In this document: piece after piece, positions 6,713-44,897 of the stretch
Numbering within the stretch: position 1 is the first letter of the stretch
How the letters are laid out: each line of letters opens with the position of its first letter
From: a phage
Reading direction: 5' to 3' (one strand)
DNA: 44,991 nt
Sequence record: PZ379602.1
Notes under the pieces: generated by a model
Told to the model about the DNA's origin: nothing
The model's input: only the letters and a program-made list of their open reading frames with translations
Databases searched by the model: none
Made by a program: the position numbers and the translations under genes

Positions 6713-9311
6713 ATGCTTCCAGTAGAGCGCTTAGTGGCGAACTTTGATAAAGAGAAAATTAAACAGATTCAGAAAGATTACCAGTTTGGAGACATAACGC
6801 CTTACGAATTCCAGTGCGTGACATTTGACGCAATCGGTAAGGCTATTGGCAAGTACGAAGCGCCATTCATCGCAGACCTGTCGGTGTCTGCTGGTAAGAC
6901 AATTATACTCGCCATGATTGGGAAACGAATGGAACAGCTTGGCCTTCCTTACATGGTCCTATCTCGCCAGTCAGAGATTATCAGCCAGAACGCAGAGGAA
7001 CTTCGTAATTTCGGCATCCGTAATAGCGTCTATTGCGCTGGCCTTAACGTTAAATCAGTTTACTACCCAACCATAGTGGCTAGCGAGGGTACGGCTGCCA
7101 ACGGCTTATTTAAGGGGCTTGGTGACTATGTTCCGGCTGTTATCGCGATAGATGAGTGCTTAACTGGAGACACGATGATAACCACCGATTCAGGGATGAT
7201 GAGGATTGATAGCGAAGACCTTATCAATCATAAAATAAAATGCATAAACGAAAGCACTGGTGATTACTTCTATCATAAGCCAAAAGAGTTTTTACTAATG
7301 GTGTAAGACATGTATCATCAATTAAATTAGAAAGCGGAGAGGAAATAAAATGCACGAGTACACACAAACTTTATTCGAACGGCTGCTGGGTAGGAGCGGG
7401 AAAACTTCGTATTGGGATGAATCTGTCGCTAGACGGCTCGCAGGACAAATTTACGAAAAAGCTCCTGCGTGCAAGTGTGGCTGTGGTGAAAAAGTTATGC
7501 CGCATTCAAGCAAGGGGTTAGGCGTACTTCTTAAGAACCCTTTCGATTTCTATTTGGATTACAGAACGGGGCATCATAATTCAACCGTCAACCCATCAAT
7601 GGAGGTTGATGACTTTTTACATCAAAACATTCTTGCGGCAATGGCTGGTGATGGTTGCTTGATTAAAAATACAGAAAAAGGAACGCATAGGCTATCTTGG
7701 AATATGGGAAATAAGGAGCACGCACTAAGCAAGGTTGAAAGGTTTGCAAAACTAAACCCTAGATACAGGGAGAAGAAAAACCCTGGATTTGGCGACAACT
7801 GGTTTTGCGTATCAACATCATGTACGAAAGTTCTGGATTCATATGCTGATAAGTACGGAAATTCTAAGGATGGTTACGATATTGGAAAGATATGCAGAGA
7901 GCTTAATCCAGTTGGTTGGGCTGCTTACTTTGGTGATGATGGTCATTGCACTGTAAGCTCAGGGAAGAGGGTTGTAGAAATCCACACCGAATCATTTAGC
8001 AGGCGTGAAGTTCAATCAGTAGTTGATGCGCTAATAGCATTTATTGCTAATGACGGAGTTAAGGTTAGAAGCTATATTGGCGGCAAGAAAAAGAGAGAGC
8101 TTTACTCAGTATCAATAACAACGAGGTCGGCACAAGATGAGTTTTTTAAGAGAATTAGTAAGCACATGGAAAATGGCGTGGAATACAAAATCAAGCAAAA
8201 TTAAAGACATCTCACCCATTGGCAAGGAACTTGTTTGGGATATAGAGATGCCTGAGCACCATAATTTCATTGCTGACGGGGTCGTGGCACATAATTGCCA
8301 CATGGTGGACCATATGGATATCGTAGAAGCTGAAGAGAATGAGGAAACATTCGAGCAGATGAGCACGAAGAAGGGTGAGATGGTCTTTAAGGATGGTGTG
8401 AATACCGGGCTTCTTGGCACTGGTCGCGCGCAATACACGTTAATCATTACCGAAATGAAGCGTCGATGCAAGGAGAAGTACGGTCGCGAACTTCGTATCT
8501 TTGGGTTAACTGGTAGCCCGTACCGTAACAACGACCACATTGTAGTTAGTAACCCAAATGTCCGTGGATTCTGGCGCAAAACTGTAATGCAAGTGCCAAC
8601 CAGCTACCTTGTTGACTTGGGGTTTGTTGTTCCTACTGTCTACGGTGAAGTTGGTGATTTGGGCTACGACCTTAGTGAGTTCACTCCTGATGGAAGTGAT
8701 GGGGTTAAGGACTTCAGCAAGAAAGAAATGGATGCGATGGCTGCAAAGATTCACGAAAACCAAACGATGACACAAAAGATAATGGGATTTGCTGCTAAGT
8801 TTATGGAAACAAGGAATGCTGCATTGGTAACTTGCGCTGGCAAACAGCATTGCGAGGAGGCGGCAGCCGCACTTCCAGAAGGTGTTACTTGGGCGATAGT
8901 TACCAACTCCACTGGTGAGAAGAAGCGTAGAGAGATACTTGAGAAGGCAGCCAACGGAGAATATAAGTTCATATTTCAGATTGGTTGCCTCACAACTGGC
9001 GTAAACTGCCCCCGTGGGATACAAGCATTATCCTGAGGAAGGTTGGTAGCATTACTCTACTCATTCAGTTGCTTGGTCGTGGTATGCGTATCCTTAAGAA
9101 GAAGCACAAAGAAGCTGGAATGGTAAAAGATGACCATGTTGTTCTTGATTTTGCTGGAACGCTTGATGATATGGCTGAACTTTACTTCGACCCAATTATA
9201 GAAGAGGTACAAGACCAGAAATTTAGGTCAGCAAGAAAGCGTGGTGATGAGCCAAGAATCTGTCCGGTATGCTCTTATGGGAACTCTCCATTCCGCCAGG
9301 CGCTGCAATAA
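6713..9311 (+). CDS. SF2 (DEAH-type) helicase precursor containing an intein; reading frame broken several times
   Basis: Walker A ADLSVSAGKT; N-extein ends AIDE and C-extein starts CHMVDH, so intein removal restores DECH; motif VI QLLGRGMR follows a frame change at a C5 run 9009-9013. Confidence 0.75.
7157..8295 (+). mobile_element. intein with a double-motif LAGLIDADG homing endonuclease domain
   Basis: Starts CLTGDTMITT; block B-like IKLESGEEIKCTSTH in another frame; LAAMAGDGCL and AAYFGDDGHC motifs; ends HNFIADGVVAHN followed by Cys. Length 1139 nt, not a multiple of 3. Confidence 0.8.
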
Positions 9312-9582
9312 CGTAATTGACGGGAAGCGCTGTGAGCACTTCTTTCAGTTTAGACTGTGTGAAGATATAGCGGACCCACAGACCAAAGCTATCATCAAGA
9401 AAGGATGCGGTGAGAAGAATGATATTGCAGCTAAGAATTGCAGATGCTGTGGTGAGATGCTCATAGACCCGAATGCTAAGTTATCAGGAAAAATGTATCG
9501 TAAGGGGGACTGGTTGCGAGTTTATGACTTCAAGATTGGGTTAACAAAGAACCAGTCAGGATTGTTGCTTCATATGAGGTAA
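9241..9582 (+). CDS. Cys-rich segment, either a helicase C-terminal zinc ribbon or a separate small protein
   Basis: Several CxxC-like pairs; overlaps the end of the frame-0 helicase segment in a different frame. Confidence 0.3.
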   Translation: MVMSQESVRYALMGTLHSARRCNNVIDGKRCEHFFQFRLCEDIADPQTKAIIKKGCGEKNDIAAKNCRCCGEMLIDPNAKLSGKMYRKGDWLRVYDFKIGLTKNQSGLLLHMR

Positions 9583-9845
9583 TGGCTCATAGTGGAGATA
9601 AGTTCCGAGCTTATGAAACATTCTTCCCGGAGTCAGACCATCGTGTTTGTTCTGTCAAATGGAAGGCGTTTTGCTCAACTCACATCGAGAACAGGACTGA
9701 GGCTTTTAGGATTGGCAGATTGCGTAATGCTAAAATGATTATGACAAATGCACATCTTTTCCGTGCGCCGCTAAGGATTACGCACCGCAAGAATCAGAAG
9801 TCGCAAGATATTATCGCCAACAAATCATTTACGATGGAGGATTGA
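9582..9845 (+). CDS. hypothetical protein (87 aa)
   Basis: ATG overlapping the previous stop (TAATG); GAGG RBS; basic composition, weak coding signal. Confidence 0.35.
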   Translation: MAHSGDKFRAYETFFPESDHRVCSVKWKAFCSTHIENRTEAFRIGRLRNAKMIMTNAHLFRAPLRITHRKNQKSQDIIANKSFTMED

Positions 9846-9846
9846 T

Positions 9847-43900: not shown

Positions 43901-44410
43901 GAGAAGTTGGACACTTACGTTACTGCCGATTCAATTGGTGCTCAGTACGGGATTAAACTTGGCCTCAAATACAATGGCGTTGAGTACAGTTCTGGCATGA
44001 GTATGGAGCTAACTGGTTCTGATGGCAATGTTCGTAGTCAGGTCATCTTTGATGCTAACAGGTTAGCAATCAGTAACGGCATTAGCTCTGGATCCGGTCA
44101 GTGGTCATTGCCTTTCGTAGTTGAAGGTAATCAGGTATTCATTCAAAGCGCAGTGATTCAGGATGGTTCAATCACTAACGCGAAGATTGGTAACCGGATT
44201 CAATCTAATAACTACGTGGCTGGTTCTCAGGGTTGGGCCATTGATAAGTCAGGCAGTGCGGAACTTAACAATGCAACTGTAAGGGGTAGTCTGTACGCAA
44301 GTAACGGCAACTTTGCGTTTAACGGAACCAACAACACTGTTCAGATTAACAATAATGGAATTACAGTTAATTTACCGAATGGTGGAAGGGTTGTAGTTGG
44401 AGTGTGGTAA
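40985..44410 (+). CDS. tail tip / host specificity protein (lambda J-like)
   Basis: 1141 aa; N-terminus GSKGGQPKQHQPVEQPDNLISV... follows the J-type pattern; position after the I-like gene. Confidence 0.85.
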   Translation: MAQMVKTNAELCDMAEEIKIYGSKGGQPKQHQPVEQPDNLISVNKVKVLLAVSDGEVDSSFSLKDLYLADVPVQNQNGTYNYEGVTAEFRPGTQSQDYIAGLEGANSEVQVNREIKNSTPYIIAVNNTQLSAIRVKLFWPRLINQESNGDLNGTTCEYAIDLSVDGATYTEYTRGVANGKTTSGYDRSIRVNLPAEFSSALVRVRKITADSESSTLVNDMQITTYQEVIDAKFRYPLTALVYVEFSSDLFPNGIPTISIKKKWKLIRVPTNYNPETRTYSGTWNGTFKMAYSNNPAWVLYDLVTNQRYGLDQRELGITIDKWGLYEAAQFCDQMVPDGKGGVEPRYLCDVVIQQKVEAYQVIRDICSIFRGLTFYDGEQIGIVVDKPRQPSYVFTNDNVVDGLFNRTFGSDKSLYTVANVQFDDVENSYQQDVEPVFELEATRRFGYNPVDLTAIGCTRRSEANRRGRWLLKTNIRSETISFTTGLEGMIPMIGEVIAVNDQAWSSNYTLNLSGRIESVSGLQVFVPFKIDATAGDRILINKPDGMPEYRTIASVSEDGMTLQLNTAFSFTPQPDTVFAIDKENLALQQYVVTGIQKADSDGDDAFGYTITAVEYDPNKYDEIDYGVNIQDRPTSIVEPDTLLAPENVQVSSYSKVVQGLSVETMVITWDKVQYAKTYTVQWRKENGNWINVPRTASTEVDIEGIYAGIYQVRVRAVSDTENVSAWSDIVSVSLTGKIGTPSSPTVITASDDEIFGIRVKWGFPENSADTSYTELQQVADNGDGTYTPENASLLTLVPYPSYEYWHTTLPAGKVIWYRARLIDKIGNVSPWTDFVRGMASDDVSSIIGDIKVDIENSDGFKYLQQNAIESNGAIQAQAESIIENALANDGDVRRMTKENGKRKAEFVQAVNLIADEERARVEALTQLKAQIDDEIVASLTRIDTALAEETQARTTADTALSARLGDNEAALNEKLDTYVTADSIGAQYGIKLGLKYNGVEYSSGMSMELTGSDGNVRSQVIFDANRLAISNGISSGSGQWSLPFVVEGNQVFIQSAVIQDGSITNAKIGNRIQSNNYVAGSQGWAIDKSGSAELNNATVRGSLYASNGNFAFNGTNNTVQINNNGITVNLPNGGRVVVGVW

Positions 44411-44415
44411 TGATT

Positions 44416-44440
44416 AGGCCCCTTTCGGGGCCTTTTCTTT
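44416..44440. terminator. bidirectional rho-independent terminator
   Basis: Hairpin GGCCCC-tttc-GGGGCC followed by TTTTCTTTT; the convergent minus-strand gene ends at 44440. Confidence 0.65.
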
Positions 44441-44897
44441 TAGTAGAAGTTTGGTATGAATGGTAGAGCCATTGATATGTTTGTGTCGAATGGGAATTGG
44501 GCTCCCGTCTGCGTTGAGTAGTTCCCTATCACAGTGCCTGGAACTGCCCTTACGGCACCACCAGACATGCATATTCCCTTGTACCTTAAGTTGTTATACC
44601 CTCCAGTAACTCTTGTTGTAGCGCCGCACCTGAGCAGTGGGAAGAACCCTCCATTTATTGACTGGAAACCATTGGTTATTTGTATAAAGCCACCAAGCAC
44701 GAACGGTCGCCTGACGCTTGAAAAACAATCTGTCCAGAACTATTAGACATTGTGAGTCCTGGGCCAGCTACTGGAGGGTCATTCCTGAATATCACTAACT
44801 GTACGTAAGTACTTGCTGCAACGTCATCTATGCCGCTGTAGTTTATGTTGCGTGCACCAAATTGTATTACCGTCGTTCTCCAGATGCAGCGGCGCAC
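44440..44897 (-). CDS. hypothetical protein (about 150 aa), apparently split by a frameshift at an A5 run
   Basis: ORFs 44676..44897 and 44440..44700 join into one Gly/Asn/Thr-rich protein if the run at 44721-44725 is one base longer; alternative start codon upstream. Confidence 0.4.

Follow-up and report, generated by a model that had tools for sequence, protein, structure and literature searches.

In fractured genes, as described by Dassa et al. 2009 (PMC2677866), a split intein is combined with a free-standing homing endonuclease encoded between the two halves of the interrupted gene. A related displacement of the endonuclease has been described for the inteins of actinobacteriophages by Gosselin et al. 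(bioRxiv 10.1101/2025.01.02.630785), where endonuclease VII-like genes lie out of frame and LAGLIDADG genes lie antisense. A 2024 paper states that no inteins have been reported in coliphages, and the literature that we searched held no report of a natural split intein in a cultured coliphage or of a fractured gene with a LAGLIDADG endonuclease. Here, we analyzed a phage DNA stretch of 44,991 nucleotides (sequence record PZ379602.1; this whole stretch is referred to as the window) in which several conserved genes, among them a helicase gene carrying an intein, change reading frame. Our comparisons revealed two kinds of frame change. Ten single-base insertions or deletions (indels) in coding sequence are, with high confidence, sequencing or assembly/consensus errors and not biology, while the frame changes between the parts of the intein are shared with independent genomes and reflect a genuine split-intein gene layout.

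The window represents the nearly complete genome of a T1-like Escherichia coli siphophage (Drexlerviridae, Braunvirinae-like). In the replication module, its closest database relatives are phages ES and AN_ECEAS, with 93–96% identity, and in the head-tail module it is IMM-001, with 90% identity. The nearest of several uncultured contigs, L015 (ENA metagenome contig ERZ27253577 k141_46313), is 99.5% identical over window positions 22604–36023. Reading frames were checked by tblastn of the window with the proteins of three annotated relatives, Rao1, IME542, and AN_ECEAS were used as controls, and the indel sites were placed by base-level alignment against relatives with identical flanks.

The original prediction had named six short homopolymers at which a single undercalled base would explain a broken gene. 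All of these homopolymers are present at the positions given for them, and the six breaks proved to be real and confined to the window. With the proteins of the relatives, tblastn gave a frame change at each of them, from frame 2 to 1 at ~7288, 1 to 3 at ~9009, 2 to 1 at ~12000, 1 to 3 at 31095–31098, 3 to 2 at 32933–32936, and -2 to -1 at ~44720, and each change fits one missing base. The list was, however, incomplete, since four more frame-breaking indels had been overlooked (9293–9294, 9559–9560, 10737–10741, and 44853). The ten sites are as follows, where -1 and +1 denote a base lost or gained in the window.

7282–7285, plus strand: A4, A5 in relatives (-1), in helicase open reading frame 1 (ORF1) within the intein N-half (HKPK/RVFTNG)
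9009–9013, plus strand: C5, C6 in five relatives (-1), in the helicase C-terminal half (NCPPWDTS)
9293–9294, plus strand: CC, single C in relatives (+1), in the helicase (YGNSPFARRC)
9559–9560, plus strand: GG, GGG in relatives (-1), in the helicase (NQSGIVAS)
10737–10741, plus strand: A5 (-1), 8 codons from the end of a conserved 73-amino-acid gene (MKKDCPEDFE, then stop)
11998–12002, plus strand: G5, G6 in relatives (-1), in a 377-amino-acid gene (LVLGGDFLHYD)
31094–31099, plus strand: A6, A7 in relatives (-1), in the major capsid gene, codon ~261 of 313
32937, plus strand: single C, CC in L015 (-1), in the tail terminator gene, codon ~35 of 132 (AFSPPRNG)
44721–44725, minus strand: A5 as read on the plus strand, A6 in L008 (-1), in a DUF6453 gene downstream of the tail tip (J-like) gene
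44853, minus strand: extra T outside any homopolymer (+1), in the same DUF6453 gene

Base-level alignment moved two of the six named breaks. The break in the intein N-half, which had been assigned to a T5 run at 7289–7293, actually lies in the A-run at 7282–7285, where five relatives (L003, L007, L012, L017, and L018) all read agccaaaaAgag between identical flanks. Likewise, the break assigned to a T4/C4 run at 32928–32935 is the loss of one C from a CC doublet at 32937, after that run, where L015, 99.5% identical in that stretch, reads tttcccctCcaagaaat; the affected gene, which had been called a tail completion gene, is the tail terminator (Pfam PF13554). The other four named runs are each one base short, as had been proposed. 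At 9009–9013 the relatives have C6, at 11998–12002 three of them have G6 (L012, L017, and L018 read tttgggggGtgattttc with identical flanks), at 31094–31099 IMM-001, L008, and L015 have A7 with identical flanks, and at 44721–44725 L008 has A6. Neither run length at the capsid site gave a match in IMG/VR. Among the overlooked sites, the window reads TTCCGCC at 9293–9294, where L012, L017, and L018 read TTCGCAC, and it is likewise one base longer there in the alignments with AN_ECEAS and ES; the run at 10737–10741 is A6 in AN_ECEAS and AAGAAA in others; and at 44853 the window reads GCGTGCA against GCGGCA in all relatives. At 7282, 9009, 9559, 11998, 31094, 32937, and 44721, the run length that keeps the gene in frame is found in relatives whose flanks are identical.

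Ten single-base edits at these sites yielded ORFs of 269, 569, 73, 378, 313, and 132 amino acids together with a continuous DUF6453 frame, matching the lengths found in the relatives. Deleting one C at 9293–9294 puts the helicase back in frame, and the corrected helicase, with its intein removed in silico, aligned over 664/664 amino acids with the intein-free IME542 gp04 at 90% identity and with no gap. The restored capsid protein spans positions 3–251 of 251 of the Pfam Major_capside profile, across the break, and the restored terminator matches Phage_tail_terminator_5 with the profile covered across its break. The restored 378-amino-acid protein, annotated in relatives as a DNA-repair exonuclease or phosphoesterase, gave no Pfam match. 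Removal of the T at 44853 and addition of an A at 44721–44725 produced one DUF6453 ORF matching L008 and L009. Upstream of ~44885 in this gene (window 44886–44991) the similarity to all relatives is lost, which suggests a mosaic junction inside the DUF6453 gene close to where the window ends. In the restored frames downstream of the breaks, omega was 0.01–0.1 and internal stops were absent; with the outcome of the edits, these values show neither relaxed selection nor further inactivating lesions.

In total, ~20 window-specific single-base indels were identified, ~17 deletions and 3 insertions, and ten of these are in coding sequence. Nine of the ten coding indels alter the length of a run (A4, C5, CC, GG, A5, G5, A6, C, and A5), the T at 44853 being the exception, and 7/10 fall in runs of at least 4 bases, which make up 4.4% of the window (binomial P = 3e-8). 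The same deletion bias was observed at non-coding runs (2499, 2522, 12612, 17098, 17872, 23714, 31282, and 44409). When all window runs with conserved flanks were compared with the relatives and sorted by their length in the relatives, the following fractions were shorter in the window.

Length-2 runs: 0/5383
Length-3 runs: 2/1072 (0.2%)
Length-5 runs: 1/64
Length-6 runs: 4/19 (21%)
Length-7 runs: 2/4 (50%)

Only one run in this comparison was longer in the window. Relatives compared with each other showed 0–4 length differences per genome, mostly outside genes, and the count of frame-shifted genes was seven in the window against none in Rao1, none in IME542, and one in AN_ECEAS (a degenerate HNH endonuclease).

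After outgroup polarization, only 6 substitutions in ~11 kb were private to the window relative to its closest relative, and the defect therefore concerns indels and run length specifically and is not a sign of general decay. Errors of substitution in the window, which a pN/pS of 0.70 against L015 had brought into consideration, were rejected, since polarization by the outgroup puts most of the changes on L015. The changes private to L015 over window 22604–36023 comprise 19 non-synonymous and 7 synonymous substitutions, many of them C>A, which suggests that they are errors or damage in that metagenome contig and not in the window. L015 also carries an additional G at the equivalent of window 20450 that alters a small gene; this position was rejected as a window error because the window agrees there with AN_ECEAS and L015 is the outlier. 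Other candidate sites were discarded as well. The apparent frameshift at 138–156 follows from a longer gene model in IME542 and shows the same pattern in AN_ECEAS; those at 5057, 13964–13988, 17099, 21090, 23761, and 29635 involve antisense ORFs, gene junctions, or intergenic sequence; and the difference at 4009 (T8 vs. T5) is specific to L012 and in frame.

Replication slippage also generates indels at homopolymers, and the seven broken genes could in principle be genuine pseudogenes of a defective or decaying phage genome or of a mutant subpopulation. Real lesions do occur among the relatives, in accessory or selfish genes: an 11-nucleotide deletion in the L012 polynucleotide kinase gene, a 1-nucleotide deletion in the L017/L018 endonuclease, and the broken HNH gene of AN_ECEAS. 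In the window, however, neither nonsense codons nor larger lesions were found, the restored frames show the strong constraint described above, and the deletion bias recurs in eight non-coding runs. L015 is intact at both breaks that fall within its 99.5%-identical stretch, namely those in the capsid and terminator genes, and at the remaining sites the other relatives are unbroken. Furthermore, the Drexlerviridae are virulent phages, so a genome without capsid, terminator, and helicase functions would have no prophage refuge, and a virulent phage cannot sustain null mutations in all of these genes at once. We therefore consider real frameshift mutations very unlikely.

Programmed frameshifts are known in phage capsid and tail genes, and recoding, either by +1 ribosomal frameshifting or by transcriptional slippage on the runs, might in principle restore the full-length proteins. 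The breaks lie at A, C, or G runs, and AAA AAG motifs are found at 7456–7461 and 7487–7492 within the intein. As in T7 gene 10A/10B and lambda G/GT, capsid and tail genes change frame at short runs; unlike in those systems, the site is not conserved here and the relatives are in frame, which places the breaks outside that class. In all relatives the runs are one base longer and each of these proteins is read in a single frame, so that no slippery site is conserved, and the two insertions would require a shift in the opposite direction. Runs of 2–6 bases are too short for efficient slippage by RNA polymerase. The AAA AAG motifs are missing in the contigs L013 and L014 and in Pectobacterium phage Abuela despite the same frames, and -1 ribosomal frameshifting at these motifs was rejected for this lack of conservation. 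Recoding is excluded because the two-frame organization was seen in no relative at any of these sites, and we accord it virtually no probability.

Sequencing or assembly/consensus error, in contrast, is consistent with the run lengths of the relatives, the restored ORFs, the purifying selection in them, and the run-length trend, and the claim of an artefact in place of pseudogenes held at the six named sites as well as at the four added ones. The further claim that every error is a single-base undercall held for most sites, which are deletions; 44853 and 9293 are insertions, of which only 9293 is an overcall of one base as two, and the errors are thus not purely undercalls. Three considerations, together with a null result, weigh against a sequencing origin. 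It was deduced by comparison with relatives; homopolymers are also favored by real slippage mutations; and the two insertions (the T at 44853, which lies outside runs, and C to CC at 9293) fit a pure undercall model poorly. The null result is that the truncated products of the window (capsid, helicase N-part, and phosphoesterase-like) had no exact match in the protein collection searched. Exact matches were equally absent there for the 176-amino-acid gene at 29637–30167 and for the tail tip (J-like), tape measure, and DUF3987 proteins.

Taken together, these comparisons suggest an otherwise intact, virulent T1-like coliphage genome whose deposited sequence would contain ~20 single-base length errors, mostly deletions in runs, that break seven genes: both helicase halves, the 73-amino-acid gene, the exonuclease/phosphoesterase-like 377-amino-acid gene, the major capsid gene, the tail terminator gene, and the DUF6453 gene. 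The indels would then have arisen in sequencing and not in the phage, presumably on a platform that miscounts runs (454, Ion Torrent, or nanopore). The known homopolymer errors of these platforms share with the present set their single-base size, the predominance of deletions, the concentration in runs, a rate that rises steeply with run length, otherwise accurate substitutions, and spurious frameshifts in conserved genes; they differ in that the present set includes one insertion outside any run (the T at 44853) and three events at runs of 1–3 bases. This finding is a case of the well-known homopolymer artefacts, not a feature of the biology. Its practical use is in annotation: the ten corrections convert 14 ORF fragments (13 called ORFs and a DUF6453 piece cut by the window end) into seven normal genes, and uncorrected, the phage would appear to be without an intact capsid protein, tail terminator, or helicase.

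The frame changes inside the helicase intein are of another kind. The original prediction had added further A-run errors near 7455–7495 and 8170–8200; these turned out to be frame changes between three separate ORFs that are common to independent genomes. After correction of the errors described above, the region is organized as follows.

6713–7521, plus strand: helicase ORF1, with the N-extein at 6713–7156 ending in AIDE, the intein N-half (IntN) at 7157–7518, and a conserved stop at 7519–7521
7350–8204, plus strand: free-standing LAGLIDADG homing endonuclease ORF of 284 amino acids, in the -1 frame relative to the helicase (Pfam LAGLIDADG_2)
8137–9845, plus strand: helicase ORF3, starting MSFL, with the intein C-half (IntC) at 8137–8295 ending in VVAHN and the C-extein at 8296–9845 starting with CHMV

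ORF1 encodes 269 amino acids once 7282–7285 is corrected, as in AN_ECEAS, L012, L017, and L018, and ORF3, which carries three artefactual indels, encodes 569 amino acids once corrected, as in L012, L017, and L018. The endonuclease ORF shares ~170 nucleotides with the IntN coding region and 68 nucleotides with ORF3. The intein blocks CLTGDT (with Cys1), TSTHKL, and the terminal HN (in VVAHN), followed by C (+1), are all present. Concatenated IntN and IntC in corrected form matched Pfam Intein_splicing with 46.2 bits (cut-off 35.8) and the DnaX mini-intein structure PDB 7cfv with E = 9e-16. The insertion interrupts the DECH motif, which we take to be helicase motif II, and excision of the intein gives AIDE/CHM, colinear with the intein-free IME542 helicase. 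Across the endonuclease region, the intein frame contains 10 stops and a single polypeptide is therefore impossible.

Across 7286–9009 the window carries no indel relative to AN_ECEAS, ES, or L012/L016, and the intein frame changes are thus shared with the relatives; L017/L018 differ from the window there only at 7679, in the endonuclease ORF, where L017/L018 are the shorter ones. The three-ORF layout with the same frame relation was found in AN_ECEAS, ES, L012/L016 and L017 (two TPA E. coli assemblies), and the Logan contigs L013, L014, and L018, as well as in Pectobacterium phage Abuela, whose endonuclease is only 42% identical. The layout recurs in at least nine independent contigs. In the Pectobacterium phages Amona, Ymer, Koroua, and Sabo, the endonuclease match is as good as in Abuela, and a homing endonuclease is annotated beside a DNA helicase. 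In a search of 5.8 billion proteins, the endonuclease homologs were stand-alone in 20/20 clusters (167–294 amino acids), and none fused to a helicase was found.

IntN, endonuclease, and IntC would be fused by a -1 shift and a subsequent +1 shift, and A-runs are present at both places; the frame changes at about 7455–7518 and 8137–8204 could thus be conceived as further errors that conceal a canonical intein, in frame and with a LAGLIDADG domain embedded in it. This alternative is contradicted by the identical frames in GenBank phages from separate submissions, in TPA E. coli assemblies, and in Logan/ENA contigs. The frames are kept at 42% endonuclease identity and without the A-runs, as those near 7455–7495 and 8170–8200 are absent in the divergent lineages, and the protein search yielded no fused homolog. 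In addition, the endonuclease ATG with its GGAGAGG-type ribosome-binding site and the ORF3 ATG (8137) with an AGG-rich Shine–Dalgarno-like motif are each conserved in four divergent lineages. A spacer of 5 nucleotides separates the endonuclease gene from ORF1 in L014, and L013 shows no overlap between the genes called for the endonuclease and ORF3. In L017/L018, the equivalent of 7679 is A4 in place of A5, which leaves the endonuclease frameshifted and uncalled while the helicase halves (269 and 569 amino acids) remain intact. This loss of the endonuclease looks like decay in the homing cycle, although it could be an assembly error. We regard a hidden in-frame intein as extremely unlikely; 'correcting' these shifts would create a false fused intein and erase the real split-intein arrangement.

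The overlap of the endonuclease ORF with IntN deserves separate description. Over the ~170 nucleotides at 7350–7518, one frame encodes the IntN tail (…LLRASVAVVKKL…) and another the endonuclease head (MHEYTQ…CKCGCGEKV); both frames are open and are conserved in four lineages at 42–50% protein identity, and this segment appears to be dual-coding. The endonuclease ribosome-binding site is formed by Ser-Gly-Glu codons of IntN.

A mobile element splits the helicase gene, as a 'fractured gene', into three translational units: ORF1 (N-extein and IntN), the out-of-frame LAGLIDADG gene, and ORF3 (IntC and C-extein). Most likely, protein trans-splicing of the ORF1 and ORF3 products would join the two halves into the 664-amino-acid helicase, as the layout and the intein motifs suggest. 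The preservation of both helicase halves in L017/L018 beside a frameshifted endonuclease lends this indirect support. Two points weigh against this interpretation, namely that trans-splicing is deduced from that layout and those motifs, and that the Shine–Dalgarno-like motif before ORF3 is only moderate. Overall, we think it probable that Braunvirinae coliphages (this phage, ES, and AN_ECEAS), several uncultured relatives, and one group of Pectobacterium phages encode the SF2 helicase as a natural split-intein fractured gene with a LAGLIDADG endonuclease whose first ~57 codons overlap the IntN end in a second frame.

Several other loci also vary among these phages. At 33213–33725, the window carries an HNH-type homing endonuclease-equivalent gene, flanked by the genes for the tail terminator and the major tail protein; the equivalents in L008 and L015 match Pfam HNH_3, and the gene is absent in AN_ECEAS, IME542, and L009. 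Homing endonuclease content is highly variable among these phages. Near the 3' end of the gene at 2081–2497, a CAACAG-type repeat (2420–2460) differs from the relatives by in-frame blocks of 3–12 nucleotides, and the gene ends in a length-variable Gln-rich tail. At the equivalent of window 12811–12821, the polynucleotide kinase/phosphatase gene of L012 lacks 11 nucleotides and is left uncalled; this locus is a probable genuine pseudogene of an accessory gene.

The split intein is the sole biologically interesting item of the window. Because these coliphages are easily grown, it makes a natural split intein directly testable; it might also serve as a protein-ligation tool, and it extends the fractured-gene model of endonuclease entry into inteins by an example of the LAGLIDADG type. 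Like the canonical LAGLIDADG inteins PI-SceI and PI-MtuI, it has the splicing blocks and a LAGLIDADG endonuclease between the splicing regions; unlike in those inteins, every lineage examined has the endonuclease in the -1 frame. With the actinobacteriophage inteins of Gosselin et al., it shares an endonuclease whose frame differs from that of the splicing domain and that is easily missed by automated annotation. Those inteins are, however, treated as intact and self-splicing with a nested endonuclease ORF, whereas the present intein is split and its frame closed. The arrangement is that of the fractured genes of Dassa et al. 2009, in which a phage gene of DNA metabolism is likewise divided into an N-extein with IntN, a stand-alone endonuclease, and an IntC with C-extein, and the 68-nucleotide overlap between the 3' end of the endonuclease gene and the downstream half falls inside the 6–69 bp given there (PMC2677866). 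The present gene differs from those in four respects. Its endonuclease is of the LAGLIDADG type, a word absent from that paper, whose endonucleases are GIY-YIG and Vsr-like; the endonuclease 5' end overlaps IntN by ~170 nucleotides in another frame, with both frames conserved; the hosts are cultured coliphages and Pectobacterium phages and not metagenomic contigs; and the interrupted gene encodes an SF2-type helicase carrying a DECH motif and not a gp41 helicase. The split helicase intein is a new member, or at most a modest variant, of this known kind.

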